Assembly (NCBI GenBank): GCA_963699255.1
Contig: OY969425.1
Coordinates: forward strand, 6,070 to 70,069
Direction of reading: 5' to 3'
Length of the DNA stretch: 64,000 nucleotides
Origin: an uncultured bacterium
GTDB taxonomy: Bacteria > Margulisbacteria > WOR-1 > CAVSGV01
Both the position numbers and the translations under genes were made by a program. Below are positions 34,547 through 64,000 of the stretch, piece after piece (within the stretch, counting starts at the first letter, position 1; the number at the start of each line of letters is the position of its first letter). Under the pieces are notes generated by a model. It searched no databases and was not told where the DNA came from. It worked only from the letters and a program-made list of their open reading frames with translations.

Positions 34547-34984
34547 TTGGTCAGGAAGGATAATATGCGCATAAAAAATTTATTGATAGGGTTAATGACG
34601 GTAATGCTGACGGCGATGCTGTCATCTGCCGCGTTCGCGGTGCTGGATCCCGCGTCAGGCACTTCAACCCCGAACGGTGATTTTATTTTTGTCCCCAACC
34701 AGACGAACACCGCGTCGATAGAGGTAGTAAGGACGTCCGATGATGCTGCGGTGCAGGCGATCAACGTTGCAAGCGGAACCCCGGCCAGCATGGCGACTTC
34801 CCCGGACGGAAAAACCCTTTTTGTCGTCGTTGCCGGAGCTACAGGAAGCAGGGTAAGGGCCTACAGCATAGGTTCCACAGAGCCTTACTTCTTTATCCTA
34901 TACGGTACTGAGCTCCACCTACACCGCAGGAAGGCAGTGCGCCATCACCCCCGACGGAAAATACCTTTATGTGGCGAACTATGA
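34547..34984 (+). CDS. N-terminal fragment of the giant protein (signal peptide plus YVTN-like beta-propeller repeat)
   Basis: MRIKNLLIGLMTVMLTAMLSSAAFA is a signal peptide. The frame of 34971..43685 is open from 34872 and reads …STYTAGRQCAITPDGKYLYVANYDD, which continues the same repeat type. A -1 shift near 34880-34895 is implied. Confidence 0.45.
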   Translation: MVRKDNMRIKNLLIGLMTVMLTAMLSSAAFAVLDPASGTSTPNGDFIFVPNQTNTASIEVVRTSDDAAVQAINVASGTPASMATSPDGKTLFVVVAGATGSRVRAYSIGSTEPYFFILYGTELHLHRRKAVRHHPRRKIPLCGEL

Positions 34985-37900
34985 TGATTCATTCGCGGGC
35001 GCAGGCAGGAGGGTTTACATACTTGATGTTTCAAATCCTTCAGCAATGACCGTTGCGGGCAGTTTCCAGGTCGCCGCTTCGGATTCCACGGTCAACCTCT
35101 GGGGAATAGCCATAAAACCGGACGGCACAAGGCTTTATGTGGGAGACAGGTACAACTACTACGGTTATTACAAGGTGTGCGTCTACAACATAGCGGGTGC
35201 GAACAGAACAAGTCCCCAGCATGTTACGGACATAAACCTTGGCACGACCAAGAACCCGACCTATCTTGCCGTGAATACGGACGGGAACAGGTTATTCGTG
35301 AAAGTGGATGAGACAGCGGATCCGGGCGACGGCGCCAGAAAAGACGTTGAAATGTACGATATTTCAGGCCCCACGCCTGTGCTTATGGCGGAGGTTTATA
35401 AGATAACGGGAAATAATTACAGAAGCTACCTTCCCGGGGACCATCTTCCAACCGGCAACGATCTGGACACGAGGAACGGCAGCGAGGGTATGGCATTAAG
35501 CCCCAACGGCTGGTTCATGTATTTTTCAAATTTTAACGGGCCTTCCGGCGACGGGAGCCTTTACTATCGGGATACTTTATACGGCTCTTCGATCGCTAAT
35601 TTAACGAACGGTTTTGACAGGACAAATCCGGGGGACATCTGGGTAAGCTGGGGCGGATGCACACAGGAGTCCCCGGCCATCTGGAGCGGATGGCATTCTT
35701 CCGACGGCATCATCGCCACAAGAAACAATAAAGTTTATTTTACTTACAGCGATGTAAGCGTGACCCCGGAATATCTCAGCGTGCCGACGACGACCGACGC
35801 GAATATTCCCCCGACAGCGCCGAAAATAACCTATCCTCTGCCGCAAGCTACTAATGTTTCCGGTTTCATTACCTGGGAGCCTTCGCTGGATGACGGCATC
35901 GGTCCTCACGGATTAACATACACCGTTGAAACCATAGAAGCTTCGACTCTGGAAGGCGGAACAACCGCCTGGAATCACATGGCTTACACCGCGACGGGCG
36001 AGGTATATACGCCTCTTATCGGAGTCAAGCCCGGCGGAACGTATTATGCCAGAGTGCAGGCTTTTGACGGCACATATACCAGCCCATGGTCCTATACGGG
36101 GCCGTTCACCATGGATGCCAATTTCCTTTTGCCACCCACATGGGAGAGCTCTTATCTGATCACATCCAGAGAAGCGGTGATCGACTGGGCAAGTGTTGCG
36201 GCGGCCGACAGTTACATTATCCAGTATAGGATAACAGGCGAAGCGACCTGGCACAGCACGTCTGCTATAGCAAGCACATACAGGTATAATTCGACAGATC
36301 CAAATCCGAACTATAGGCTTACGAACCTTACTCCGAGCGCGACCTATGAGGTGAATTTAATCGCGGTTAGGAGCGGGGTCAAAAGCGTCCCGTCTTCAAA
36401 GCCTTATGTTTCTTTCTACACGCTGGAAGAGCCGTGGGTGAGCCACGCCAGGGTCACGTCGACAGAGGCATATATATTGTGGGGACCTGAGGTAAGCACA
36501 TTGGAGCTGAATGTTCCGAACGCTGTCAATTATGAATGCTGGTACAGGATACAGAATGCGCCTGTGGACTGGACAAGAGTCACATGGCCTTCCGGAAAGC
36601 AGGACAGTACAACAATGACAGTGTTGAACGCCAAGCTGAGCGGCTTAACGGCGTCCACCACATATGAGGTCAGGATGAGGACCGTAGATGCATATGGCGG
36701 GCGCTCTCTCTGGTCGCCAATTCATGATGTGTACACGATGGAGCGGCCGTGGGTGAGCCACGCAAAGGTCACATCAACAGAGGCGTATATATTGTGGGGA
36801 CCCGAAGAAAGCACTTCTTTTAATATACCCAATGCCGCCAGCTATCAATATCAGTATATGAAGAAAACGGATACCTCATGGACCACCGGTCCCGAGCCTC
36901 TCAGCAAGAGAGACGATGGAACTATGCCCGTATTGAATTTTAAGCTGAGCAATTTAACGGCGTCAACCACATATGAAGTTCAGATGAGAGCGTTGGATGT
37001 CTATGGCCGCACTTCCGACTGGTCAGCGACGGATGAAGTGTATACTCTTGAGAGCCCGTGGGTGAGCCACGCCAAGACGTCAACGAACGAATCGTACATA
37101 TTGTGGGGTTCCTCGACGAGCTTTGAAGTTAGGAACGCCACTACCTACGAAGCAAGAGCCAGAATAACATCCAGCGCTTCGTGGGATGCGGTCCCGATCA
37201 AAGGGGTGCCTCGATATAATCGCGATGACGGCACCATGTCGCCGACGTTAAACATCAAATTAAGCTCGTTGCTCGGATTTACTCCGATAGTAAACACTAC
37301 ATATGAGGTCAGGATGAGGGCGAGAAATGCCGGCGGAGCATCTGACTGGTCCGCCACAAATGAAGTGTATGTGCTGGGGACCCCGTGGGTAAGCGCCGCG
37401 AAGGTCACATCGAAAGAGGCGTATATATTGTGGGGGCCGGTAGGCGAGACCGGGCTGGATGTGACCGGAGCTACAAGTTATCAGTGCTGGTACAGGGTGC
37501 AGAATGCGCCTGTGGACTGGACAAAGGTCACATGGCCTGTCGGCAAGCAGGACGATAGGACAATGGCAACGTTGAACGCCAAGCTGAGCGGCTTAACGGC
37601 GTCCACCACATATGAGGTCCAGATGAGGGCGGTTGGATCAGGAGGATACTCTGACTGGTCGCCTATCTATGATGTGTTCACATTTGAGCGGCCCTGGGTG
37701 AATCATGCGAACGTCAAAGCGACAGAAGCATACATATTATGGGGGCCTGAAGAAAGCGCTTCTCTTAATATACCCAATGCCGCCAGCTATGTGTATCAAT
37801 ACAGGAAGCCGGCGGATACTTCATGGACCAGCGGTCCCGAGCCTCTAAGCAAGCAGGACGATGGGACCATGCCCGTGTTGAATTTTAAGTTAACGGGCTT

Positions 37901-40900
37901 GACGGCGTTGACCACATATGAAGTTCAGATGAAAGCGCTGGATTCTATCGGCCGCAGCTCAGACTGGTCCGCCACAAACGAGGTGTTCACACTTGAGTGC
38001 CCGTGGGTGAGCCACGCCAAGACGTCAACGAACGAAGCGTACATATTATGGGGTTCCACGACGAGCTTTGAAGTGATAAACGCCACGACCTACGAAGCCA
38101 AAGCCAGAATAGCATCCAGCGCTTCGTGGGCTTCCATACCGTCGATAGGGGTTCCGCGATATAACCGCGATGATGCCACCATGTCTCCTACGCTGAACAT
38201 CAAACTAAGCAAGCTGCTTGGTTATGCTCCGACTACCGGCGTTACCTATGAGGTAATAATGAGGGCGGATGGACCGGGAGGATACTCCGACTGGTCGGCC
38301 ACACATGAGGTGTTCATGCTTGAGAGTCCATGGGTGGGGCACGCCAAGGTGGCGACCAATGAGGCGATAATATTGTGGGGCGCCACGACCAGTTTCGAGG
38401 TTCAAGGGGCTACTAGCTATCAGGCTATGGCATGCGCCAAGAACGGGGCATGGCAGCCGATAGTGAGCGTGCCTAACTTTAATATCGATGATGGGACCAT
38501 AAGCCCGACGGCTACAAGTATGTTCAATATCAAATTAAGCAAGTTGCTCGGATCAGCTCCGACACTGAACACTACTTATGAAGTAATGATGAGAGCGGTC
38601 GGATCCGCGGGTTACTCCGACTGGTCAGCCACTCATGAGGTATATATATTGGGGGCCCCATGGGTAAGCCACGCTAATGTTACAGCAACGCAGGAATATG
38701 TGTTATGGGGTCCGATAGGCCAAAGCGGCTTGAATGTGACCGGCGCGGTAAGTTATGAATATCAATACAAGAGAAAGATAGATACTTCATGGATCGGCGG
38801 CTCCGAGCCTCTCAGCAAGAGAGATAATATTTTGATGAGTTGCTTGAACTTCAGGTTGACCGGTTTGACGGCGTCAACCACATATGATGTTCAGGTGAGG
38901 TCGGTCGGGACATACGGTCGCTCCGACTGGTCTGCCACAGATGAAGTGTACACTCTTGAAAGCCCGTGGGTGAGCTACGCTAACATAACAACAAATGAAG
39001 CATCCATATTGTGGGGTTCAACGTCGAGCTTTGAAGTGATAAATGCGGCAACATATGAAGCTAAAGCCAGGATACAGGGCGGCGCTTCGTGGGATACCAT
39101 CTCGTCCATAGGTGTGCCGCGATATAACCGCGATGATCCAACTATGGCTCCAACATTGAACATAAAATTAAGCAAGCTGCTCGGAATTGCTCCGACATCG
39201 GGCGTTACTTATGAAGTAATTATGAGAGCGGATAATGCCGGCGGAGTTTCAGACTGGTCAGCCACAGCTGAGGTGTTCATGATAGGGACCCCGTGGGTAA
39301 GCCACGCGAAGGTTTCGTCTAAGGAAGCTTATGTGTTGTGGGGACCGATAGGTCAAAGCGGTCTGGATGTGACCGGAGCCTCATCTTATGAATGCCGATA
39401 CAGGATAAAGGGAGCGCAGGTGCCGTGGACAACGAAGATCGAGCCTCTCGGCAAGCAGGACGATCCGACAATGCCTGTATTGAACTTCGAGCTTAGCAAT
39501 TTAACGCCGTCCACAACATATCAGATCCAGATGAGGGCGGATGGAACAGGAGGGAACTCCGGCTGGTCGGCAACAGATGAGGTGTATACTCTGGAGACCC
39601 CGTGGGTGAACCATGCGAACGTCAAAAAGACAGAAGCATACATAATATGGGGATCGATAAGCGGAGGGTTGGACGTTCCCAACGCCGCCTATTACAAATA
39701 TCAATACAAGAAGCTGTCGTCCGCGGTATGGATGAGCGGTACTCAGCCTCTCGGCATGAAAGACGATCCATCAATGGCCGTGTTGAACTTCAGGCTGGCT
39801 GGATTAACGGCATCGACCTCGTATGAGGTCCAGATGAAGGCGGTAGACGCCCTCGGCGGCGAATCCGACTGGTCGGCCATTGATTATTTCATAACGATAC
39901 AAGGCCCGTGGTGGATAGATGTAAGCCATGTAACCGGAACATCCGCTCTTATTTCCTGGGATAATACGGCTCCGGGAGTGACACAGTATGATCTTAGGTA
40001 CAGCACGGCCCCGTCGGCGGAACTCGGGACAGCGGTCCTTACTACGGATGCCCAGCTTGCCGTCACCGGTCTTAGTACGAATACACAGTATTACGCGAAA
40101 GTGAGGGCGATAACCGCTGCCGGCCCGAGCAGCTGGACGAGTGTTGCGCCCTTCTTTACAAATCCTGTTGTAGGCCCGTCATGGATAGCTGCTTTCAATA
40201 CGACAACAACAGCAACAATGGTCACGTGGGAAGGTGTATCCGGCGCAACATCGTATGAAGTGAATTACGGGATAAATACCATGCCCATGGTGTGGACTTC
40301 CTGGGCTCCGTCGCCGCAGGATCAGAATTACGGCGGTCCTATTACAGGATTGAACCCGAGGACATGGTATAACCTGAGGGTCAAGCTGCACAGCGGCGCA
40401 AGCGCAAGCGAGTGGTCACCCACGGCGTTATTTTATACGATACCCGCTCCGACCGGTGTTACACAGATAGGCTCCACCGTGACCACAGCGACCATTACAT
40501 GGGAGCCCGTGGACATGGGCGGAGGAACGCCCGCACCCGCTTACGAGATAAGCTGGGGCGTGGATGCTACTGCTTCCGGAAGCGGTGATGCCGTAACGGG
40601 CAACATTAATTATACTATGACAGGATTAACGACCGGCTTAACATATTATGTGACGGTCAGGGCACGCGAGAGCTCCAATCCTTCCGATGGATACAGCGAT
40701 TGGTCCCCGTATCCGGCACTGCAGGTAGTGGCATCGGGAACCATGGGTCCTGTCGCTCCAGCGTGGTCAAGCCATTACCTGGTCACTTCGAATGAGGCGG
40801 TGGTGAACTGGGGAAGCGTTGCACTGGCGGACCATTATATCGTGCAATATAAGAAATTGACCGATGCGACCTGGGCCAGCGTAGAGGTGCTAAGCACATA

Positions 40901-43685
40901 TCAATACAATACAGCCGATACGAACCCGAATTGCCAGCTTACCAATCTTTCTCCAACCGTGACCTATCAGGTAAGGGTGATATCGGAGATAGGCGCGCTG
41001 CAAAGCTTCCCGTCCAATCCGCCGGATACTTTCTACACTCTGGAAAGGCCATGGGTGGACACCTATAAGCCTGACTCAACCCAGATATATGTTACCTGGG
41101 GGCCGGAGGTCAATACATCAGAAGTAGCTGTTCCGCTCGCGGACCATTATCTCCTGCAATACAGCCAGAACGGCGGAACATCATGGACGACTTATTCGGC
41201 CAAGATCCTGGATAACACCGTTCACGATGACGCGACCAACCTGAATTTGAACATATTATTGAGCGGCCTGATCACAAATTCAACATATGAGGTCCAGATG
41301 AGGACCGTTGACAGCACGGGCGGGTTGAGCGACTGGTCGGCCATCAAGACGTTCCACACGATAAGAGCGCCCTGGTGGATAGACGCGACCATTACGGGAG
41401 CCGACTCTGCCAACATATTCTGGGACAATGTGTCAGCTCCGCAGTATGAACTCAGGTACAGCCATAATCCTTCAGCTGAAGGTGCAGGCATGACCGTTGT
41501 TACTACTACGGATGCAAAGTGCGCTGTCGCCGGCCTAGATGTCAATTCCACGTATTATGCGAAGGTCAGGGCGCTGACAGTCGCCGGCGCGAGCGACTGG
41601 TCGCCCATAAAGATGTTCGGTACGTTGCCCGGACCGACCTGGATATCTAATTATTTGACAACGACCACCTCGACCTCGTTCACCTGGGAGGGGGTTGCCG
41701 GGACTTATGAGGTGAGCTACGGGACAAATACGGATGCTTCAGGCACCCTTATTTATCCGTTCATGCCGACCGATCCTTTTATCACAGGTATTACCGGGCT
41801 GACGCCGAAGACATGGTATCACGCGAAAGTGAGGGCTTATTCCAGCGGGAGCGTAAGCTCATGGTCGCCGATAGATGACTTTTTCACTATACCCGCTCCG
41901 AACAATGTTGCCTGGACAGGGTCCACTATAACCACAGCATCCATAACATGGGAGCCGGTGGACCTGGGCGGGACGCCGTGCACCTCTTATGAGGTAAGCT
42001 GGAGCCTGACGCCCGAGGTTACGGGAAGCGTCAGTATTATGACCAAAGAGGTTTACTCGACCATATCCGGCTTAACGACAGGTTCGACTTATTATGTGAA
42101 AGTCAGGGCGCGTGACGACGCCGACAGCGGATACAGCAGCTGGGCGCCGTATCCTCCTCTTACTATCGTGGCGACGGATCAAGCTACGATAAACGATGTG
42201 AACGCGGGTTATGGCGTTACAGGCGGCTGGAGAGGCACAACGGTCATGATCGAAGGGATGAATTTCGGTTCAACTATGGGGACCGTTTCATTTGGATCAA
42301 CGGTCGCGCAGCCCGGTTACTGGAAGAACAATGAAATAGCCGTGTCCGTGCCGCCGACCGCGGTTTCAGGACCTAATGCCATAACGGTCGTGACCAATGC
42401 CGGGGTCACCGCGACGAGCGTCCCGTCAACATTTTTCTTTACCGTGACCGACGGCGGGGTTGTTCTTGATGACTTTGAAGGCGGCGCGTGGCAGTTCTCC
42501 ACCTGCGAGGTCGGACCTCTGAACTCCGTGAGCGCAGTGAAGAACTACACCAACCCGCAGGAGAGGAACACTTATTTGACGGTTGAATGCAACGGGACCG
42601 CGGCTTATGAAATAGTGGGCGGGGTTACCCCGTACGGCGACCAGCCTACCGAGAATGGCATCGACATAAGTTCATGCAAGCAGATAAAGCTCTGGTTCAA
42701 AGGCGACGGCTCCACGAATATCGCCACATTCGAGCTGGGCGAAAGCAATATGGCGCCCGGAAACAATCCGACGAACCCGAATGCCGCGGAAATATGGGCA
42801 TATAATGTTCCGATCTCCATGTCTAATACGAACTGGCAGCAGATAACCATAAACCTGACCACTGAAGGGGCGGGCAGTTTCGCGGTTACCAACTACTGGC
42901 CCGGAGACGGCGTTCTTGAACTTAACATGATAAAGAGCTACCAGATACTTACGAGCGGCGGGAACCCGAAATCATACGCTGTAGATTATATTTTCGCGAC
43001 GACGGAAGCAGGCGGAGGCCCTGGGACAGTTAGCTATAATCTTCAGAATAATGCATCAGGGAACGTCAACTGGGTCGCATTTCCTTATACCGGTTCCGGA
43101 TATAACACGACGACTGATCTGGCTGCGGCGATAGGCAACACGATACCTATTGGTTCTCGTACCGCCTGGGTGGATGTTGTGGAAGTGAACGTATGGGATG
43201 CCACCGCCCAGTCTCAAACGACATATCAATCATGGTGGGATGGGACCATCTGGAATGATCTGGGCAGCAACGCGAATCTGGTAGTTGGAGATATGTATAC
43301 GGTTACGGTCCCAAGCAGCGCTAATGGGAATGCTTTCTCGATCAATGGGAACACGCCTGCAAGCGGTTCTGTTTCATTTACTCTTCAGAATAATGCATCC
43401 GGAAATGTCAACTGGATGACGATACCTGCGTATTTATCGGGGATCGTGACAACGACCGATCTGGCAACATCAATAGGCAATAAGATACCGATAGGTTCTC
43501 GCACCGCATGGGTGGATGTTGTGGAAGTGAACGTATGGGATCCCGTCGCTCAGTCTCAAACGACATATCAATCATGGTGGGATGGGACCATCTGGAATGA
43601 TCTGGGCAGCAATACGGCCGTGGTTACACCAGGCGCGTATAAAGTAACAGTTCCATCGTCAGCAAATGGCCTTGTTTGGCCATAA
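34971..43685 (+). CDS. giant cell-surface protein with ~20 fibronectin-III-like modules and a duplicated C-terminal domain (2904 aa as called; ~3045 aa if joined to 34547)
   Basis: ~100-aa modules of the form PWVSHAKVTS.EAYILWGP…Y.YQY…LS.LTASTTYEVQMRA…SDWSAT.EVYTLE recur about 20 times. The C-terminal ~110-aa unit NVNW.A.P…IGSRTAWVDVVEVNVWD…TTYQSWWDGTIWNDLGSN occurs twice. Confidence 0.8.
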   Translation: MANYDDSFAGAGRRVYILDVSNPSAMTVAGSFQVAASDSTVNLWGIAIKPDGTRLYVGDRYNYYGYYKVCVYNIAGANRTSPQHVTDINLGTTKNPTYLAVNTDGNRLFVKVDETADPGDGARKDVEMYDISGPTPVLMAEVYKITGNNYRSYLPGDHLPTGNDLDTRNGSEGMALSPNGWFMYFSNFNGPSGDGSLYYRDTLYGSSIANLTNGFDRTNPGDIWVSWGGCTQESPAIWSGWHSSDGIIATRNNKVYFTYSDVSVTPEYLSVPTTTDANIPPTAPKITYPLPQATNVSGFITWEPSLDDGIGPHGLTYTVETIEASTLEGGTTAWNHMAYTATGEVYTPLIGVKPGGTYYARVQAFDGTYTSPWSYTGPFTMDANFLLPPTWESSYLITSREAVIDWASVAAADSYIIQYRITGEATWHSTSAIASTYRYNSTDPNPNYRLTNLTPSATYEVNLIAVRSGVKSVPSSKPYVSFYTLEEPWVSHARVTSTEAYILWGPEVSTLELNVPNAVNYECWYRIQNAPVDWTRVTWPSGKQDSTTMTVLNAKLSGLTASTTYEVRMRTVDAYGGRSLWSPIHDVYTMERPWVSHAKVTSTEAYILWGPEESTSFNIPNAASYQYQYMKKTDTSWTTGPEPLSKRDDGTMPVLNFKLSNLTASTTYEVQMRALDVYGRTSDWSATDEVYTLESPWVSHAKTSTNESYILWGSSTSFEVRNATTYEARARITSSASWDAVPIKGVPRYNRDDGTMSPTLNIKLSSLLGFTPIVNTTYEVRMRARNAGGASDWSATNEVYVLGTPWVSAAKVTSKEAYILWGPVGETGLDVTGATSYQCWYRVQNAPVDWTKVTWPVGKQDDRTMATLNAKLSGLTASTTYEVQMRAVGSGGYSDWSPIYDVFTFERPWVNHANVKATEAYILWGPEESASLNIPNAASYVYQYRKPADTSWTSGPEPLSKQDDGTMPVLNFKLTGLTALTTYEVQMKALDSIGRSSDWSATNEVFTLECPWVSHAKTSTNEAYILWGSTTSFEVINATTYEAKARIASSASWASIPSIGVPRYNRDDATMSPTLNIKLSKLLGYAPTTGVTYEVIMRADGPGGYSDWSATHEVFMLESPWVGHAKVATNEAIILWGATTSFEVQGATSYQAMACAKNGAWQPIVSVPNFNIDDGTISPTATSMFNIKLSKLLGSAPTLNTTYEVMMRAVGSAGYSDWSATHEVYILGAPWVSHANVTATQEYVLWGPIGQSGLNVTGAVSYEYQYKRKIDTSWIGGSEPLSKRDNILMSCLNFRLTGLTASTTYDVQVRSVGTYGRSDWSATDEVYTLESPWVSYANITTNEASILWGSTSSFEVINAATYEAKARIQGGASWDTISSIGVPRYNRDDPTMAPTLNIKLSKLLGIAPTSGVTYEVIMRADNAGGVSDWSATAEVFMIGTPWVSHAKVSSKEAYVLWGPIGQSGLDVTGASSYECRYRIKGAQVPWTTKIEPLGKQDDPTMPVLNFELSNLTPSTTYQIQMRADGTGGNSGWSATDEVYTLETPWVNHANVKKTEAYIIWGSISGGLDVPNAAYYKYQYKKLSSAVWMSGTQPLGMKDDPSMAVLNFRLAGLTASTSYEVQMKAVDALGGESDWSAIDYFITIQGPWWIDVSHVTGTSALISWDNTAPGVTQYDLRYSTAPSAELGTAVLTTDAQLAVTGLSTNTQYYAKVRAITAAGPSSWTSVAPFFTNPVVGPSWIAAFNTTTTATMVTWEGVSGATSYEVNYGINTMPMVWTSWAPSPQDQNYGGPITGLNPRTWYNLRVKLHSGASASEWSPTALFYTIPAPTGVTQIGSTVTTATITWEPVDMGGGTPAPAYEISWGVDATASGSGDAVTGNINYTMTGLTTGLTYYVTVRARESSNPSDGYSDWSPYPALQVVASGTMGPVAPAWSSHYLVTSNEAVVNWGSVALADHYIVQYKKLTDATWASVEVLSTYQYNTADTNPNCQLTNLSPTVTYQVRVISEIGALQSFPSNPPDTFYTLERPWVDTYKPDSTQIYVTWGPEVNTSEVAVPLADHYLLQYSQNGGTSWTTYSAKILDNTVHDDATNLNLNILLSGLITNSTYEVQMRTVDSTGGLSDWSAIKTFHTIRAPWWIDATITGADSANIFWDNVSAPQYELRYSHNPSAEGAGMTVVTTTDAKCAVAGLDVNSTYYAKVRALTVAGASDWSPIKMFGTLPGPTWISNYLTTTTSTSFTWEGVAGTYEVSYGTNTDASGTLIYPFMPTDPFITGITGLTPKTWYHAKVRAYSSGSVSSWSPIDDFFTIPAPNNVAWTGSTITTASITWEPVDLGGTPCTSYEVSWSLTPEVTGSVSIMTKEVYSTISGLTTGSTYYVKVRARDDADSGYSSWAPYPPLTIVATDQATINDVNAGYGVTGGWRGTTVMIEGMNFGSTMGTVSFGSTVAQPGYWKNNEIAVSVPPTAVSGPNAITVVTNAGVTATSVPSTFFFTVTDGGVVLDDFEGGAWQFSTCEVGPLNSVSAVKNYTNPQERNTYLTVECNGTAAYEIVGGVTPYGDQPTENGIDISSCKQIKLWFKGDGSTNIATFELGESNMAPGNNPTNPNAAEIWAYNVPISMSNTNWQQITINLTTEGAGSFAVTNYWPGDGVLELNMIKSYQILTSGGNPKSYAVDYIFATTEAGGGPGTVSYNLQNNASGNVNWVAFPYTGSGYNTTTDLAAAIGNTIPIGSRTAWVDVVEVNVWDATAQSQTTYQSWWDGTIWNDLGSNANLVVGDMYTVTVPSSANGNAFSINGNTPASGSVSFTLQNNASGNVNWMTIPAYLSGIVTTTDLATSIGNKIPIGSRTAWVDVVEVNVWDPVAQSQTTYQSWWDGTIWNDLGSNTAVVTPGAYKVTVPSSANGLVWP
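36420..39900 (+). repeat. tandem array of ~300-bp FN3-module coding repeats
   Basis: Recurring ccgtgggtgagccacgcc / catatgaggtccagatgag strings. Several copies are more than 85% identical at DNA level, so assembly collapse is possible. Confidence 0.7.
43038..43680 (+). repeat. ~340-bp tandem duplication encoding the C-terminal domain of the giant protein
   Basis: cttcagaataatgcatc…gtcaactgg…ggttctcg(t/c)accgc(c/a)tgggtggatgttgtggaagtgaacgtatgggat occurs at ~43041 and ~43382. Confidence 0.75.
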
Positions 43686-55187: not shown

Positions 55188-55714
55188 TGGAGAAGACCCT
55201 GAAAACAAATAGGATATATAAAGGCAGGATCGTCGGATTGAGGGAGGACACTGTCAAACTAGTTAACGGAGTGGTGTCCAAAAGGGAGATAGTTGAGCAT
55301 CCGGGCGCCGTCGCCGTTATCGCCGTTACAAAAGACGGCAGGATGGTCCTGATAAGGCAGTTCAGGAAACCCGCGGAGAAAGTTCTTCTTGAAATTCCCG
55401 CGGGGCTTGTGCACAAGGGAGAAAGCAATATCAACGGCGCGCGAAGGGAGCTTACGGAAGAGACCGGATATGTGGCCGGCAGGATCAGGGAGATATTCAG
55501 CGGCTACTCGTCCCCTGGGTACAGCACGGAAGTGATAAAATTCTTCCTCGCGACCGACCTGAAGAAAGCGGAACAAAATTGCGATGCGGATGAAATGATC
55601 AGCGTTGAACTTTGTCCCGTGAAAAAAGCCCTGAAGATGCTGAGGCTGGGAAAGATAAGGGACAATAAAACAGCCGTCGGAATACTGCTAGCTAATATTT
55701 TATGGAAAAGATAA
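55184..55714 (+). CDS. NUDIX hydrolase (ADP-ribose pyrophosphatase-like)
   Basis: Nudix box GLVHKGESNINGARRELTEETGY. Start overlaps the upstream stop. Confidence 0.8.
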   Translation: MMEKTLKTNRIYKGRIVGLREDTVKLVNGVVSKREIVEHPGAVAVIAVTKDGRMVLIRQFRKPAEKVLLEIPAGLVHKGESNINGARRELTEETGYVAGRIREIFSGYSSPGYSTEVIKFFLATDLKKAEQNCDADEMISVELCPVKKALKMLRLGKIRDNKTAVGILLANILWKR

Positions 55715-56562
55715 TAGAAGAATTTTTAAGCCACCTTAAGTATGAAAGGGGATACAGCGGGAACACCGTATCTGCTTATAAGAGGGACCTTGCTCATTTT
55801 GACAGGCATTTGAGGCAGCTGAATATCAGCTCTGTAAGCAGCATCACAAGGCCCGCGATAAGTTCGTTCGTCACGGCCCTTGTGGGGATGGGGCTTGAAG
55901 CTTCAAGCATAGAAAGGCATGTTGCGGCGGTAAAATCATTTTTTGCTTATCTGGTAAGGGAAGGCAAGGTCAAGATAAACCCCACTTCTGATATAAGGCT
56001 TCCGAGAAAGAGCAAGAAACTGCCGAAAGCCCTTTCAATGAACGAGGCGAAGAGCCTGGTGGAATGCCCCAGGTCAAAAAAGGACAGGGCGATAATGGAG
56101 CTTCTTTACGCGACGGGGATAAGGGCGACGGAGCTGGTCGGCCTCACGCTGAATGATGTCAATCTGGACGTCGGCTTTATCAAATGTTTCGGCAAGGGCG
56201 GGAAAGAACGGATCGTGCCGATGGGAGGATCCGCGATCTCCGCCATTAAAGAATACATCAAGTCGGACCGTCCAAAGTCCTCAAGCGATATTTTGTTCCT
56301 GGACAGGATGGGAAAGCAGCTTACCCGCCAGGGACTCTGGTTCATCGTCAAGAAATACGTTGAATTATCGGGGGTGAGGGCGAGCGCGTCTCCCCACACC
56401 CTGAGGCATTCTTTCGCCACGCACCTTTTGGAGGGCGGCGCGGACCTGCGCTGCGTCCAGGAGATGCTGGGCCACAGCGATATTTCCACCACCCAGGTGT
56501 ATACTAGCGTAAGCAGGGAGCGGCTGAAAAAGATATATCACTCCGCTCATCCTAGGGCATAA
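55702..56562 (+). CDS. XerC/XerD-family tyrosine recombinase
   Basis: N-terminal SAM-like domain (LKYERGYSGNTVSAYKRDLAHF). C-terminal catalytic region HTLRHSFATHLLEGGADLRCVQEMLGHSDISTTQVYT has the R..H..R..Y residues. Confidence 0.85.
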   Translation: MEKIIEEFLSHLKYERGYSGNTVSAYKRDLAHFDRHLRQLNISSVSSITRPAISSFVTALVGMGLEASSIERHVAAVKSFFAYLVREGKVKINPTSDIRLPRKSKKLPKALSMNEAKSLVECPRSKKDRAIMELLYATGIRATELVGLTLNDVNLDVGFIKCFGKGGKERIVPMGGSAISAIKEYIKSDRPKSSSDILFLDRMGKQLTRQGLWFIVKKYVELSGVRASASPHTLRHSFATHLLEGGADLRCVQEMLGHSDISTTQVYTSVSRERLKKIYHSAHPRA

Positions 56563-56776
56563 CGGGTAACCATGGAACCTGAGACTAAAAGTCTCGGTTC
56601 CAAATAGAGTATGAAAATTAACCGCGAATTTTATTCGCGGGATGTTAGTTAGCTCATCCTAGGGCATAACGGGTAACCATGGAACCTGAGACTAAAAGTC
56701 TCGGTTCCAAATAGAGTATGAAAATTAACCGCGAATTTTATTCGCGGGATTTTAGTTAACTCATCCGAGGGCATAA
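56545..56776 (+). repeat. tandem direct repeat, 2 x 107 bp plus a 15-bp partial third unit; each unit has two hairpins and includes the last ~18 nt of the recombinase gene
   Basis: The unit is (gct)catcctagggcataacgggtaaccatGGAACCtGAGACtaaaaGTCTCGGTTCCaaatagagtatgaaaattaaCCGCGAATtttATTCGCGGgat(g/t)ttagtta(g/a)ct, with units at 56548-56654 and 56655-56761, then catccgagggcataa. Confidence 0.85.
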
Positions 56777-58801: not shown

Positions 58802-60343
58802 ATGGATGTAACAGATGAAGTGTCTTTTTGGTCCAGATTAGGATTTAAGGCGAACCCTTTCCAATATACAAATGCTGACCAGGAAGATGAATTGCATAAA
58901 TATTTTGTGCCGCCTCAATATTTTCCGTCTGTATGGGGTGACCCTCAAAAACCCCAGTCTTGTGTGGTGTTTGCACCACGTGGTGGAGGCAAATCTGCAC
59001 AAAGAAGAATGATCGAAAATCAAAGTATTGGGAGTAAAGTCCTTGCACTTCAGTACACAAGGTTTGAATTTAGACCGGGTATGCGCATATCGGACATAGA
59101 TATTGAATATCATCTCAAAAACATTATTCGAATATGTTTAATCGGATTTCTTATGCAAACATATGAGAATAAAATTGGGCATATGGTTTTCAATGCAACT
59201 GAAAAGAGGCAAGTTAAGGATCTATGTAATTTTTATTTACATGATATGAATACTGAAGCGGTTTCCGCAGCTGTAAATGCGATAATGAGTCCAGCCGAAA
59301 AAGCAAAAAAATTGTTTTATGAGAACTCATGGGTTATCGGACCAATTATTCAGATTTTAGCAAAAACGTATATAGGGATAGACTTATTCCCTTTAACACT
59401 TCAAGCTGATGATACATCAATAAGAAATGTATCAAAGACGCACTTAGAGAACATATTATTACTAATTAAAAAGCTTGGTTATGATTCAGTATATGTATTA
59501 ATTGATAAAGTCGATGAAACAAGCTTAACAAGTAATAATGCACAAGCTTCCTTTGATTTGATTGCTCCAATGCTTAAGGATTTAGAATTACTACAAATGG
59601 GTAATATTGCCTTCAAATTCTTTTTGTGGGATGAAATCACTCCTTCATTTATTAAATATGCACGGCCTGACAGAATTACGGCATTTAATATGACATGGTT
59701 AGAAGCAGACTTAAAAAATATGATGACTCGGAGGCTGTGTGCTTATAGCAATAATGGTAAGCGCAATTTCGGAAATCTATTTGATGCTAAGATAGCCCCC
59801 ATAGATGTCCTTGAAGAATTGCTTTCTATTTTCTCCCAGAATTCCCCAAGAGATATGATTCGGATATGCAGGCAAATGGCTGCTGAACAATTAAAAATTA
59901 ACCCATCAGATAGCCATATAGGCATGACTGCTGCTACTGAAGGGATAAACAGATTTTGTCTTGACCGCGCGCGCGAAGTTGTTTCCACGAAGATTCTTGA
60001 AGAGCTTCAGAAAACTCACCGATTAGATTTCACTGTAAATTATGTTGCAAATGATATTTTTAAAATAGACCAAAATGCTGCAAGGGCAAAAATTACCTCA
60101 AGTTGGGTGGTAACTGGTATTATAAGGCGCATTGATGATACCCATATTAAGGGAGTAAAAAAACCAGCGCATCATTTTGCGGTTATGGATTCTAGGATTG
60201 CCAGATCAATATTCCCTGAACTAAACTTTCTGGATTTCTTAGAGAATAAAGTTCGTGAATGTAAATGCGGGGAATTTGTTCTTAGAGATTGGGATATTTC
60301 AAGCAATCAGATATGTCAAAAGTGCAAAACGCAAATGAAATAA
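58802..60343 (+). CDS. P-loop NTPase with a C-terminal zinc ribbon (513 aa), carried on a low-GC islet
   Basis: Walker A FAPRGGGKSAQRR. A candidate Walker B lies in VYVLIDKVDETS. The C-terminal motif is CKCGEFV…CQKCKTQ. The gene and its flanks (58563-60433) are visibly more AT-rich than the neighbours, with different codon usage. Confidence 0.7.
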   Translation: MDVTDEVSFWSRLGFKANPFQYTNADQEDELHKYFVPPQYFPSVWGDPQKPQSCVVFAPRGGGKSAQRRMIENQSIGSKVLALQYTRFEFRPGMRISDIDIEYHLKNIIRICLIGFLMQTYENKIGHMVFNATEKRQVKDLCNFYLHDMNTEAVSAAVNAIMSPAEKAKKLFYENSWVIGPIIQILAKTYIGIDLFPLTLQADDTSIRNVSKTHLENILLLIKKLGYDSVYVLIDKVDETSLTSNNAQASFDLIAPMLKDLELLQMGNIAFKFFLWDEITPSFIKYARPDRITAFNMTWLEADLKNMMTRRLCAYSNNGKRNFGNLFDAKIAPIDVLEELLSIFSQNSPRDMIRICRQMAAEQLKINPSDSHIGMTAATEGINRFCLDRAREVVSTKILEELQKTHRLDFTVNYVANDIFKIDQNAARAKITSSWVVTGIIRRIDDTHIKGVKKPAHHFAVMDSRIARSIFPELNFLDFLENKVRECKCGEFVLRDWDISSNQICQKCKTQMK

Positions 60344-60350
60344 TGGACAG

Positions 60351-60383
60351 GTGATTATCTATGCTAATCACTCTTCTTCTTCA
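60351..60383. terminator. hairpin between convergent genes
   Basis: GTGATTAtctatgcTAATCAC is a 7-bp stem followed by tcttcttcttc. It sits 8 nt after the 58802..60343 stop and upstream of the - strand MTase 3' end. Confidence 0.45.
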
Positions 60384-60433
60384 GGAGTGCTAGGGAGGCA
60401 GGCTAAGAATCCTTAAATATGCTCTCTAACTTG

Positions 60434-60994
60434 CTATTTCTTGATATTTATTGCCACTGACCGGCTGAACCAGATCTTAGGTTCTTCAAGAACATTAAAC
60501 CCAAGGCTTTTTATCGTTTCTATCGACTTGCTAAAGTCTTTCTTTGAAACATGGAACTTCGGCTCAACTATTAGGACTTTCCCGTCCGGCTTCAATAACG
60601 TCTTTATTTCCTTCAACAACGCCAGCTGGTCGGGGATCTCGTGAAGGACATAAAATATCAAAATAAAGTCGAACTTTTCCGTTAAGCCTAACTTGTCCTT
60701 CGGGGTTATATATAGCTCTATGTTCTTAAGGCCCGAACGCTCGATCTTTTTCTTCAGTATCTCCAGCATCCCATCCTGCAGATCAGCCGCAACCACCTTG
60801 CCGGAAGCTCCCACCATCTTCGCCATATCCATGGTGAAAAATCCCGGGCCGCAGCCAAGATCAAGCACCGTCATCCCTTCATTAATATATGGCTTTAATA
60901 TCCGCTTCGGATCATGGGCCCGCCTGCGTATCCCCATATCCAATATGCCCGAGAGTATTACCGGGCAGATTTTGTAGTTTATATCTAATTTCAT
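60434..60994 (-). CDS. class I SAM-dependent methyltransferase (UbiE/SmtA-like)
   Basis: Motif I VLDLGCGPGFFTMDMA, followed by the acidic motif VVAADL. Confidence 0.75.
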   Translation of the reverse strand: MKLDINYKICPVILSGILDMGIRRRAHDPKRILKPYINEGMTVLDLGCGPGFFTMDMAKMVGASGKVVAADLQDGMLEILKKKIERSGLKNIELYITPKDKLGLTEKFDFILIFYVLHEIPDQLALLKEIKTLLKPDGKVLIVEPKFHVSKKDFSKSIETIKSLGFNVLEEPKIWFSRSVAINIKK

Positions 60995-61181
60995 TTTTCC
61001 TTCCCGCTTTCTTTATTATATTTATCGTTCATCAGCTTGTCTATATTTCATTTGTTGAACTATTTTTCAGGTGAGAGTTAACATGGTGGAAGCTAATTTG
61101 GGCTTATCGGCAAGATCAAAACGCGTTTCTGCGCTTTAGATATACTATGGCATAGTAATAAGCCAATCAGAAACGCTTGAC

Positions 61182-61505
61182 CTTCTTTCTTTGTTACTTT
61201 CTTTGTGTCAAGACAAAGAAAGTAAGAAAGAAATGCCTTTGTGTTGTTTAGACAAAAAATGATCTTAAATGATCGAGACGAGGGGCTCTGCCCTTACGTA
61301 GAAAGTATAGTGGTTCCATTAAGATATCTCTCTCATCCCGCCCATTTTCTTTCTGCTCCTTCCTTGACTTGCCTACTCCCCCGACACAAGGTCGAGGTCG
61401 TACGGCTCAAACAGAAGGCCTAACAATGAAACCCCCTCTGTATCTCCCCCTTACTAAGGGGGAGAAGTCTTGCGCGCAAGCGTGAGACAGAGGGGGTGCA
61501 GACTT
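61182..61505. repeat. hairpin-rich ~300-bp intergenic element, copy 1, including a 22/24-bp inverted repeat at 61184-61232
   Basis: cttctttctttgttactttctttgtgtc-aa-gacaaagaaagtaagaaagaaa is a near-perfect palindrome. The core …gggctctgcccttacgtagaaagtatagtggttccattaagatatctctctcatcccgcccattttctttctgc…ggtcgaggtcgtacggctcaaacagaaggcctaacaatgaaaccccctctgtatctcccccttactaagggggagaag… is shared with 63469-63830. Confidence 0.6.
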
Positions 61506-61598
61506 ATTAAGAGGTTGACAATGGGATTTTTGGCTATTAGTATGACTGCATCGGTCTCGCAAGAGGGGTTAACCCGTTATTCTTTAAGCCATAAATAC

Positions 61599-61630
61599 TG
61601 AAATTTATCGCGTAATTTAATGATATATAT
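61599..61630 (+). promoter_or_regulatory. recurrent promoter-like motif
   Basis: ctgaaatttatcgcgtaatttaatgatatatat, 24 nt upstream of the 61655 start. RBS is agaggag. Confidence 0.4.
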
Positions 61631-61654
61631 GATGAGAAGAGGAGAATTGATCCG

Positions 61655-61843
61655 ATGGACAACACATTGGTAAAAGATGAAAAATACGGCGGCCGGTTCG
61701 TGGCTCTGAAGAGCTTTGACGACAAAACAATACTTGTTGACGGGAAAGATCCGAAAGAAACCCTTGAAAAAGCAGCTCAAAAAGGGTTTAAAAATCCTGT
61801 AATATTCTATGTGCCGATAAAAGATATGGTTCAGATCTACTGA
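61655..61843 (+). CDS. small hypothetical protein (62 aa), DUF5678-like
   Basis: Good RBS and the promoter motif upstream. It is of the small protein type often paired with retropepsin-like proteases in uncultivated bacteria and archaea; I state this family assignment from memory only. Confidence 0.5.
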   Translation: MDNTLVKDEKYGGRFVALKSFDDKTILVDGKDPKETLEKAAQKGFKNPVIFYVPIKDMVQIY

Positions 61844-61907
61844 CAGATGGGACTTCAGAACAAACCTTTTATTCAGATCGGCTCGGGAAATACTCCAAAA
61901 CCCTAGC

Positions 61908-62251
61908 TTCCTATCGTTATAATAAATCCTCATACCAAGAAAAGCGTTTCCACTTATGGACTTGTTGACACGGGTGCGGATGAATGCGCCTTGCCCGCTA
62001 GTTTTGCCGAAATACTTGGCCATAACCTGCAACAAGGAAGCCCCAAGGAAATATCCACGGGGAATGGCATTACGATCGCATATTCGCATACTGTTTCAAT
62101 TGAAACGGATGGCTTTCATACGGAGGATGTGTTGATCGATTTTATGCCCAATTTAAGCATTCCATTGTTGGGCGTGAGAAGCTTTTTGAGTAAATTTATT
62201 CTAACGATTAACTATAAAGAGCGAACTTTTTCTCTGCAGCCAAACAACTGA
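61908..62251 (+). CDS. retropepsin-like aspartic protease (clan AA), start codon unclear
   Basis: …STYGLVDTGADECALPASFAEILG… has the D-T/S-G-A catalytic motif. The frame is open from 61908 but holds no ATG before the TTG at 61991. The 3' end overlaps pabB convergently by 44 nt. Confidence 0.55.
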
Positions 62252-63329
62252 TAAACTCCGCTTTCAGCCGGGTTTCGGCCCATTCGCCCTCCGCAGTGGA
62301 ATCCCAGATTATCCCGCCGCCTATTCCCATCTCGCAACTTTTACCTCGTACAAGTATAGTCCTGATGGGAACATTGAAATACATCCCGCCATCGGGAGAT
62401 ATGTACCCGATCGCCCCCGTGTAAACATTCCTTTCTTCCTTTTCGATCTCCCTGATGATCTCCATCGCGCGTATCTTCGGCGCGCCGGTGACCGACCCGG
62501 AAGGGAAAAGCGCGGACATCAGTCTTGAGAGCTTGATATCAGGCGGGACTTTAGCGGTGACCGTGGATGTCATCTGGAACAGAGTTTTATATGCCGTTAC
62601 CTTGAACAGGTCCCGCCACGCGATATTTCTGCCTATCCTTCCCAGGTCATTCCGCAAAAGATCCGCTATCATTATGTTCTCAGCCCTGTTCTTTCCATCA
62701 TGGAAGAACCTGCGCTTCTCGATAACATCGGATATCGCATTTTTCCCCCTGCGCCACGTGCCTTTCATCGGCTCAGTTAGAATATGCCCGCAGTTTTTCT
62801 TTATAAAACGCTCCGGGGAAAGCGACAGGACCTGGAATCCTCCCGCGTCGATGTAAGCGGGATAGGGGACAGGCTGGCGGCGTAAAAGCTCTTTGTACAG
62901 CGCGTACGGGTCGCCCTGAAGATCGAATTTATATTTTACGCAGTATGTTATCTGATAAACATCGCCGTTCGATATGTGCCGGCGGATGAGTCCGATATTG
63001 CGGGAGTAATCTTCAAATGAAATATCCGGCCTTAGATCTTTGATGCCGAAGGTCCCGGGTTTCCTCGATGTTGACTCCTGGCCACAAGCATTTTTATAAA
63101 CGCCGAAAATAAGAAGTGGGAGATCAGAAGGGATCGCTGTGTATAATTTTTCTTCAAGGCAATAGCCGGCTTCGTATGAAATGTATCCCGCCAGCCAGTA
63201 TCCGGCGGCGGAAAGATCCTCCAGCTCCTTCAGCGCGGAATGAAAATGCTGCGGATCATAACAGGCCACGATCTTTTCCGGATCGCGGAAAAAAAGCGGT
63301 TTGTTCTCAAAACTGGCCTGGACTTCCAT
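62208..63329 (-). CDS. pabB: aminodeoxychorismate synthase component I (chorismate-binding enzyme, PabB/TrpE family)
   Basis: C-terminal chorismate-binding domain has GSVTGAPKIRAMEIIREIE, RNVYTGAIGYISPDG and GIGGGIIWDSTAEGEWAETRLKA. It is short (373 aa) and lies near folC. Confidence 0.75.
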   Translation of the reverse strand: MEVQASFENKPLFFRDPEKIVACYDPQHFHSALKELEDLSAAGYWLAGYISYEAGYCLEEKLYTAIPSDLPLLIFGVYKNACGQESTSRKPGTFGIKDLRPDISFEDYSRNIGLIRRHISNGDVYQITYCVKYKFDLQGDPYALYKELLRRQPVPYPAYIDAGGFQVLSLSPERFIKKNCGHILTEPMKGTWRRGKNAISDVIEKRRFFHDGKNRAENIMIADLLRNDLGRIGRNIAWRDLFKVTAYKTLFQMTSTVTAKVPPDIKLSRLMSALFPSGSVTGAPKIRAMEIIREIEKEERNVYTGAIGYISPDGGMYFNVPIRTILVRGKSCEMGIGGGIIWDSTAEGEWAETRLKAEFISCLAAEKKFALYS

Positions 63330-63468
63330 GGACTTACTCCTTTAAGCCTGGGTGTCCCGGTTAAAGAGGAGTGAAGTTCATGGCCCGGACATGATTATAT
63401 CACTTATAATTCCGGATGTAATTTCTTACCTTGTGAGCAACTGCTCGAAGCCGCGAGCCTGAAGGAAT

Positions 63469-63830
63469 GTAAAAGAAAGTGGAAAGGAAATACCTTTTAT
63501 GTAAAACAATGCAAAATGAAAACTAAAGTTATCGTGACGATGGGCTCTGCCCTTGCGTGGAAAGTATAGTGGTTCCATTAAGATATCTCTCTCATCCCGC
63601 CCATTTTCTTTCTGCAGCGAAAGAAAATGGGGGAAAAGAACGCCGACAGGGGACAAGCCCCCTGTACCCCCACGGCCTTGACTCGCCTTCTCGTCCTCAC
63701 CAAGCTCGGCCTCGTACGGCTCAGACAGAAGGCCTAATAATGAAACCCCCTCTGTATCTCCCCCTTACAAAGGGGGAGAAGTTTCGAACGCAAGCAAAAG
63801 AAAGTAAGAAGGAAAGGTATTATGTTTTTT
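63469..63830. repeat. hairpin-rich intergenic element, copy 2, with a ~50-nt insertion relative to copy 1 that creates a 13-bp perfect hairpin
   Basis: CCCATTTTCTTTCtgcagcGAAAGAAAATGGG and ACAGGGGacaagcCCCCTGT hairpins. It is flanked by aaagaaagtggaaaggaaa on the left and aaagaaagtaagaaggaaagg on the right. Confidence 0.6.
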
Positions 63831-63842
63831 TGAGTTAGAAAC

Positions 63843-63877
63843 ATGGAGCGAACTTTTTCTCTACAGCCAAGCAACAC
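63843..63877 (+). other. remnant of the 3' end of a second retropepsin-like protease gene
   Basis: atggagcgaactttttctctacagccaagcaacactag (MERTFSLQPSN…) aligns with agagcgaactttttctctgcagccaaacaactgataa (KERTFSLQPNN*) at 62214-62251. Confidence 0.4.
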
Positions 63878-64000
63878 TAGCCCAATTCTAAGATTATGAA
63901 GGCTAGGTGGCCATGATGATTACGAGCATATATAATTAATGATATGCTCCTCTAGGGTCCTTCCGATTTGATATGCGTCATTTCTTTCGATCACTTTTTT

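Follow-up and report, generated by a model that had tools for sequence, protein, structure and literature searches.

What placed a hairpin-rich, non-coding segment of about 300 nucleotides (nt) on both sides of the folate gene pabB is the question raised by a 64,000-nt stretch of contig OY969425.1, from an uncultured WOR-1 bacterium of the Margulisbacteria (hereafter the window). The two copies are, on balance, probably paralogous non-coding flanks, recombination scars left around a relocated pabB, each carrying a hairpin that resembles repetitive extragenic palindromic (REP) sequences. The 300-nt unit is thus neither a new RNA nor a 300-base mobile element; it is an informative rearrangement scar. 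A sequence-only reading of the locus had suggested a recombining, possibly mobile element or a family of structured small RNAs. Its observation was confirmed and its interpretation is partly supported: recombination stands, mobility applies to the small hairpin alone, and the RNA family falls away.

Direct reading of the region and alignment of the copies confirmed that both flank pabB in plus-strand orientation (Table 1). The sequence-only reading had described a single, near-identical core of ~150 nt; the identity is instead mosaic. Block I is identical between the copies at 75 of 78 positions (96%) and block II at 69 of 75 (92%), versus 26 of 40 (65%) in the stretch between them (Fisher p = 7e-6, blocks versus middle). 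A core 23-mer and a 30-mer from block I each occur exactly twice in the 64 kb (chance expectation 0). The 55-nt insertion found only in copy 2 creates a perfect stem, CCCATTTTCTTTC/GAAAGAAAATGGG, and a second hairpin, in line with the earlier remark that indels make or remove stems. Of the module described below, copy 2 is missing the 3′ strand of the outer stem, along with most of its second inner hairpin. The purine strings noted at the edges were likewise recovered. The motif AAAGAAAGTrrGAArGAAA occurs five times in the window, always within 60996-63815 (0.01 expected); it stands in direct repeat on both sides of copy 2, and the left-edge motif of copy 1 is the right arm of a 21-nt inverted repeat (95% complementary). 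The edge motifs around the copies are only 70-88% alike.

Beyond copy 2 lie a remnant of the 3′ end of a retropepsin-like protease gene and then the 3′ end of an unrelated minus-strand gene. The remnant had been read as 35 bp long; its origin holds (28 of 30 positions identical to 62219-62248), and its length is corrected to 30 nt, a second analysis placing it at 63846-63875. Inside copy 2, the stub of the second inner hairpin (..GCAAG) is joined to a sequence 88% alike to the 25-mer of the left edge of copy 1, which looks like a head-to-tail junction.

Genomic neighborhood comparison shows that pabB itself is out of place. Its best homologues carry the name Candidatus Omnitrophota, and in the closest of them (78-81% identity) the gene belongs to a conserved row of SLT/TPR, ruvB, pabB, a lapA-domain gene and hisB, with a ruvB-pabB spacer of 85 nt. 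Homology between the window and this ruvB-pabB-lapA locus is confined to the relocated segment of Table 1: its left limit is the right end of the gene cassette that follows copy 1, its right limit lies 73 nt upstream of pabB, and both breakpoints coincide with the repeat-bearing flanks. The C-terminal tail of the protein differs as well (373 residues here versus 363-364 in relatives), ending in ...AEF-ISCLAAEKKFALYS in place of ...AEFLGKP, and its last ~12 codons (62208-62251) are supplied by the 3′ end of the protease gene, read in antisense. The proposal that the locus recombines is therefore upheld, since the copies bracket an out-of-order pabB and copy 2 bears deletion and junction scars.

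The cassette between copy 1 and pabB consists of a DUF5678 gene and the retropepsin-like gene, both assignments of the sequence-only reading being confirmed by Pfam. In relatives, an intact 132-residue protease takes the place of the gene that is interrupted here by an in-frame TAG, and an intact protease invariably comes after close DUF5678 homologues (84-95% identity); the retropepsin-like gene is therefore probably a pseudogene in this genome. Nucleotide homology to the relatives' cassette runs only from 61514, at the TTGACA right after copy 1, to 62235, so that elsewhere the cassette comes without the hairpin-rich segment. Relatives carry different hairpin-rich inserts at the position of copy 1. 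In one of them (match L122), a ~180-nt hairpin-rich insert (5680-5850) that is absent from match L120 precedes the cassette, and a 22-nt imperfect inverted repeat (5736-5757/6810-6831) brackets it. A PADLOC search with the cassette proteins gave only a weak, generic protease match.

A lineage-specific, promoter-like motif, WGTGAAATTT-N15-CGATATATATA, was observed 45-95 nt upstream of open reading frame (ORF) starts on the plus strand of the window (2406, 11062, 12539, 13325, 23944, 46505 and 61599, with weaker sites at 2330, 15229, 30561 and 46423), and a motif of the same WGTGAAATTT type is kept upstream of the DUF5678 gene of both relatives named above. Block I was considered as such a promoter and rejected: a matrix built from TGAAATTT-N15-CGATATATA scores it at -19 versus 39-49 for true sites.

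A rearrangement of this kind would have taken place in a variable, low-GC accessory region of the chromosome, as the setting of a recombination or duplication event. Ancestrally, a segment A would have stood upstream of the DUF5678/retropepsin cassette B, with B ending in a 30-nt stretch C; the present order reads A-B-C-pabB-A'-C'. The simplest account would be that A...C existed twice with pabB lodged between. The second A...C would have lost B by internal deletion, leaving a junction of the hairpin stub and another A edge motif; a 1.15-kb piece with pabB and its promoter, normally between ruvB and lapA, would have landed between the copies, and the last pabB codons would have been replaced by antisense cassette sequence. 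A circle carrying pabB, A' and C' may have integrated by a single crossover in C, or a tandem duplication may have been followed by insertion and deletion. We infer this order and mechanism of events, as well as any role of the hairpins in promoting them. If correct, an essential folate gene has been moved and re-terminated by recombination beside an accessory island in which repeat scars accompany a defence gene and a toxin-antitoxin-like cassette.

Several points weigh against reading the copies as scars of this kind. A single neutral duplication does not predict the mosaic identity of the copies; duplication has to be supplemented by selection on the blocks, by gene conversion or by a mosaic origin. 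One genome cannot resolve the order of events, and further 300-nt copies may exist in the source genome, which is viewed here through a 64-kb window. No enzyme that moves the hairpin module was identified, no Y1 transposase search having been made in the metagenome-assembled genomes (MAGs).

The part of each copy that does extend beyond this genome is the nested hairpin module at its 3′ end. In sequence order, it reads ACCCCCTCTGT-A-TCTCCCCCTT-loop-AAGGGGGAGA, followed in copy 1 by a second hairpin and the closing ACAGAGGGGGT. The outer stem P1 (ACCCCCTCTGT/ACAGAGGGGGT) gives the 67-nt module 11-nt terminal inverted repeats and encloses two hairpins: P2 (TCTCCCCCTT and AAGGGGGAGA around a loop of 3-5 nt), present in both window copies and in ~130 external matches, and P3, whose sequence varies among genomes. 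The copy 1 module folds at -48 kcal/mol (z = -8.3), and the z-score of the truncated copy 2 module is -2.2. About 15 of the 130 matches are complete modules, and all of these fold into the P1(P2,P3) shape (z -4.3 to -8.3); since a MAFFT alignment of the complete modules misaligned their 3′ ends, they were folded one by one and no covariance model was built.

The module is widely dispersed. Its 20-mer CCCCTCTGTATCTCCCCCTT was found in more than 117 genome-contig stretches among the matches listed, and the identical sequence is common to at least nine phyla. By record titles, its carriers are Dehalococcoidia, SAR202, Bacteroidota, Ignavibacteria, 'Chlorobi', Saccharibacteria, Falkowbacteria, Poribacteria, Caldithrix, Bdellovibrionales, Competibacteraceae, Verrucomicrobiia and Margulisiibacteriota; a match labeled Methanoregula (L046) lies on a 1x-coverage contig, perhaps mis-binned, and is not relied on for presence in archaea. 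Four MAGs hold at least 38 (Dehalococcoidia), 22, 15 and 7 loci among the matches listed, and the window holds two module copies in 64 kb. MAGs rich in the module are JBGPJN01, JALNZH01, SHYG01 and LLZO01. The 20-mer also occurs in three IMG/VR viral or proviral contigs (L135, L136 and L137), within long open frames. By BLASTN, only 37 nt (61431-61467), and up to 72 nt, are common to the window and the dispersed loci. An exact pattern of the complete module gave only two matches in metagenomes. REPIN-like doublets arise in the Dehalococcoidia MAGs, where the place of P3 is taken by a related, inverted hairpin. Crude ORF calls place the 130 matches mostly between genes, with no strict bias in gene orientation, and the flanks of eight complete copies showed no short exact target-site duplication. 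A literature search for the module sequence returned only unrelated primer matches, and the peptides that the module encodes had no Pfam or NCBIfam match. The 3′ hairpin module is thus REP-like, or like the miniature transposable elements with inverted repeats known as MITEs, and comes from a family dispersed across phyla; it is plausibly the mobile or recombination-prone part of each copy.

Two observations on other module-bearing genomes stand beside this. A recurrent hairpin, GTCCCGAGC-loop-GCGAGGGAC, with a tandem G.A beside the loop, acts as P3 in unrelated genomes (L086, L089, L114 and L129, with a variant in L005), and this GTCCCGAGC/GCGAGGGAC hairpin may be a separate dispersed family. 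The Saccharibacteria MAG of match L005 contains direct repeats of 197 nt (2628-2824 and 5345-5541, 97% identical) that include a complete module; they lie 2.7 kb apart with several ORFs between, a layout like that around pabB.

Many module matches sit within long open frames, in both orientations. In the DNA polymerase IV gene (dinB), the module adds ~22 residues relative to PDB 7yll (query 328-359 versus chain 316-325). Other in-frame hosts encode a radical-SAM HemW-like protein, CobN, a GT9 glycosyltransferase, an amine oxidase and a protein with an FGE-sulfatase domain, and a further host gene resembles Obg, judged by eye. The tiny ORF MKPPLYLPLTKGEK, which the sequence-only reading had noticed in both copies and thought incidental, is indeed no more than one frame in which the module can be read, and match L085 contains its peptide too. 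This hairpin family combines exceptional identity across phyla with tolerated in-frame insertion in core genes (dinB, obg by eye, cobN and hemW-like). The HemW-like gene with the module (L129, ~690-650, minus strand, and also in its C-terminal part) contains another perfect in-frame palindrome, GTAGGGGCTGGCGGCCGCCAGCCCCTAC, which suggests invasion of that genome's coding sequence by several hairpin families.

An alternative is that A...C is a small, non-autonomous transposon, with A as its left end, C as its right end and the genes as cargo, that copy 2 is an internally deleted, MITE-like derivative, and that two insertions flank pabB by chance. Copy 2 does retain both 'ends', A' and C', with the interior gone, the edge motifs form direct repeats at copy 2 and an inverted repeat at copy 1, and the cassette lies in a different context in relatives. 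Nevertheless, this reading is unlikely. The relatives' cassette occurs without A, and the 300-nt unit has neither terminal inverted repeats nor a short exact target-site duplication at the flanks of either copy. The flanking motifs are less alike than blocks I and II, and two independent insertions leave the displaced gene order of pabB unexplained. No more copies appeared in the 64 kb or in the public collections searched: apart from one chance match, no 12-mer of either copy recurs in the remaining 60.9 kb of the window, a block I 20-mer went unmatched across the JGI metagenomes and 596 Gb of species-representative genomes, and the 5′ part, as a chimeric six-frame peptide query, had no match among 5.8 billion proteins. 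Annotation is limited to 43.6-63.3 kb of the window, and none of the proteins there is a transposase. As for IS200/IS605-derived, palindrome-associated elements, neither tnpA nor tnpB occurs among those proteins, and no ωRNA-type Rfam match was obtained. The earlier suggestion of a mobile, MITE-like element fits the 37-70-nt nested hairpin at the 3′ end, with its dispersed 20-mer and in-frame copies, and is not supported for the whole unit, whose remaining ~230 nt per copy were not found outside this genome and were assigned no function. A structured cis-regulatory leader or small RNA, on either strand, that controls the cassette or the divergent methyltransferase and pabB is quite improbable. 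Each copy lies 140-220 nt upstream of a minus-strand gene, both fold well as whole elements (copy 1 z = -4.7, copy 2 z = -2.8), and blocks I and II are far better conserved than the linker. However, none of the 46 predicted pairs varies on both sides between the two sequences compared, so that the covariation check returned no compensatory change, and Rfam was empty at gathering score over the whole window; with E relaxed up to 10, its scan of 60900-64000 returned nothing but miRNA-like noise, located on the A/T inverted repeat. ARAGORN found no tRNA or tmRNA, as the sequence-only reading had also stated; its small RNA family is not borne out. Moreover, no sigma-70-like site or lineage-specific promoter motif precedes the element, the relatives' cassette appears to work from its own promoters without it, and copy 2 lacks one third of the structure and carries the 55-nt insertion.

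A cassette system could also use the copies for site-specific recombination, for example as integron attC sites or Xer/dif-type module boundaries. They bracket small gene units, a xerD gene lies 5 kb away, GCCTAAC, which fits RYYYAAC, immediately precedes the copy 1 module on its 5′ side (copy 2 has GCCTAAT), and TTATGTAAAAC, beside an edge motif, resembles an XerD arm of the dif consensus. Yet GCCTAAC has no GTTRRRY partner, an ATAA-N6-TTAT dif core is absent, and the dispersed module lacks AAC/GTT core sites. The recombinase is XerD, just above the cut-off of its own model and far below that of the integron-integrase model (Table 1). With no core-site pair, and XerD as the sole tyrosine recombinase in the annotated part of the window, the attC and dif-like readings were rejected, including the cassette recombination site that the sequence-only reading had entertained; this origin is highly unlikely. 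That the arrangement is an assembly artefact caused by the repeats is extremely improbable. An independent Logan contig (run ERR10755942) corresponds to 61439-63589 and ends inside both repeats, so that the links to the left of 61439 and to the right of 63589 rest on the source assembly alone; it nonetheless contains the two pabB junctions together with the unique stretch that separates the repeats, which supports the pabB-flanking arrangement. The copies are distinguishable because the 55-nt indel and many substitutions separate them.

A more speculative reading concerns the module itself. The 5′ arm of its stem is preceded by its own mirror image (CCCCCTCT-GTA-TCTCCCCC...GGGGGAGA), and two further hairpin families at the same loci show the same mirror relation with other sequences (CCCCTCC-TAA-CCTCCCC and CCCCCCTGT-AGTCCCCCC). 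The flank mirrors the arm in 85 of 111 readings (shuffle mean 50, maximum 63), and 203 of 289 readings have complementary outer stem triplets (shuffle mean 92); because the copies are not independent, these statistics amount to about three independent observations. An intramolecular triplex (H-DNA) needs a homopyrimidine mirror repeat beside its purine complement. With such a mirror-image flank, an intramolecular triple helix could form from one strand alone. One strand could adopt the pyrimidine motif and its complement the purine motif; in complete copies, a three-way junction would be an alternative fold open to the same strand. The module might then represent an undescribed architecture of small mobile palindromes, triplex-capable and serving as the recognition form for a mobilizing enzyme or as a promoter of recombination of the pabB type. 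This is doubtful; if the mirror repeat does reflect a triple-stranded fold, small mobile DNA would gain a new principle of recognition.

Table 1. Features of the pabB region and its neighborhood (window coordinates).
Feature	Coordinates	Strand	Details
DS41-type anti-phage protein	58802-60343		above NCBIfam curated cut-off
XerD	55702-56562		XerD model 329.8 versus cut-off 329.6; integron-integrase model 143.7 versus 265
S-adenosylmethionine (SAM) methyltransferase	60434-60994	-	Pfam
A/T- and purine-rich inverted repeat	61183-61233		arms 61186-61206 / 61213-61233 (21 nt, 95% complementary)
Copy 1	61213-61505	+	edge motif; block I 61278-61355; variable middle 61356-61395; block II 61396-61470 (alignment)
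Complete nested hairpin module, copy 1	61431-61497	+	P1 61431-61441 with 61487-61497; P2 61443-61465; P3 ~61468-61486
Small gene cassette	61514-62251	+	common to relatives
Promoter-like site TTGACA/TAGTAT	61515-61543		in cassette
TGAAATTT-N15-GATATATA motif	61599-61629		in cassette
DUF5678 gene	61655-61843	+	Pfam
Retropepsin-like gene	61847-62251	+	Pfam; in-frame TAG 61904-61906, codon 20
pabB	62208-63329	-	373 residues
Relocated segment	62254-63402	-	pabB and ~73 nt of upstream region; homology to relatives' locus
Spacer	63403-63468		66 nt, between pabB upstream region and copy 2
Copy 2	63469-63830	+	edge motif 63472-63490; block I 63537-63614; 55-nt insertion 63615-63669 (alignment)
Copy 2, 3′ part		+	middle 63670-63709; block II 63710-63784; truncated module; second edge motif 63797-63815
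Truncated module, copy 2		+	P1 5′ strand from 63745; P2 63757-63779; P3 stub to ~63796
Remnant of retropepsin gene 3′ end	63845-63874	+	30 nt, 28/30 identical to 62219-62248

The surroundings of the locus show further features of their own. Between folC and pabB lies a low-GC accessory stretch (58802-62250) with the DS41-type gene, the SAM methyltransferase and the DUF5678/retropepsin cassette; GC content is 0.32-0.42 over 58.8-62.2 kb versus ~0.50 on either side. From the last 17 nt of xerD onwards, a 107-nt tandem duplication (56545-56758, 99% identical) contains two hairpins, one of them terminator-like. Farther away, a giant ORF of 2904 residues (34971-43685) has internal repeats of ~309-327 nt, and two adjacent genes of ~900 residues (2498-5200 and 5266-7962) share stretches of ~75% nucleotide identity and look like paralogues.

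Set against known systems, the 300-nt segment resembles, in its composition, the bacterial interspersed mosaic elements (BIMEs) of E. coli, being an intergenic mosaic of a REP-like hairpin, small hairpins and variable linkers. BIMEs are built of motifs that recur many times in one genome, whereas here no motif besides the REP-like hairpin was found to recur. The module itself stands closer to REPs. REPs are imperfect stem-loop palindromes of 20-40 bp with an unpaired GTAG or CGTC tag at one end of the stem, and as REPINs they are mobilized by RAYT tyrosine (Y1) transposases. Tagged REPs form families in distant taxa and inverted dimers, have copies inside genes that span 20-30 residues, repair genes among them, and may bear degenerate tags (PMC3733652). 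Like these REPs, the module forms a short G+C-rich hairpin whose stem measures 10 bp and whose loop, variable in sequence, has 3-5 nt; some genomes contain it many times over, with at least 38 loci in the one Dehalococcoidia MAG, mostly intergenic in the crude ORF survey; it is often paired with an inverted partner into a larger structure; and its intragenic copies add 20-30 residues, a repair gene included. A sister family in the same MAGs has GTAG directly 5′ of the stem (TGTAG|TCCCCCC). The module family differs in having GTAT there (TGTA|T), not GTAG, in an extra 5′ C-run that mirrors the 5′ arm of the stem, a trait not met in the portion of the REP account available (PMC3733652), in a 20-mer that is identical across at least nine phyla, and in having only two copies in the window.

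Comparison with MITEs and with Rickettsia palindromic elements (RPEs) yields a similar picture. In-frame insertion into unrelated genes is described for these elements, and truncated QMITE2 copies look like REPs (PMC10969869). Correspondingly, the complete module has terminal inverted repeats and internal hairpins, its truncated copies look like REPs, and, as with RPEs, it lies in frame within unrelated genes. Unlike MITEs, however, it measures only 64-95 nt, lacks a target-site duplication at the eight complete copies, has no known parent insertion sequence, and is spread across phyla far more widely than any single MITE family in that account. Among small palindromic repeats, the module adds a new member to the REP/MITE-like class.

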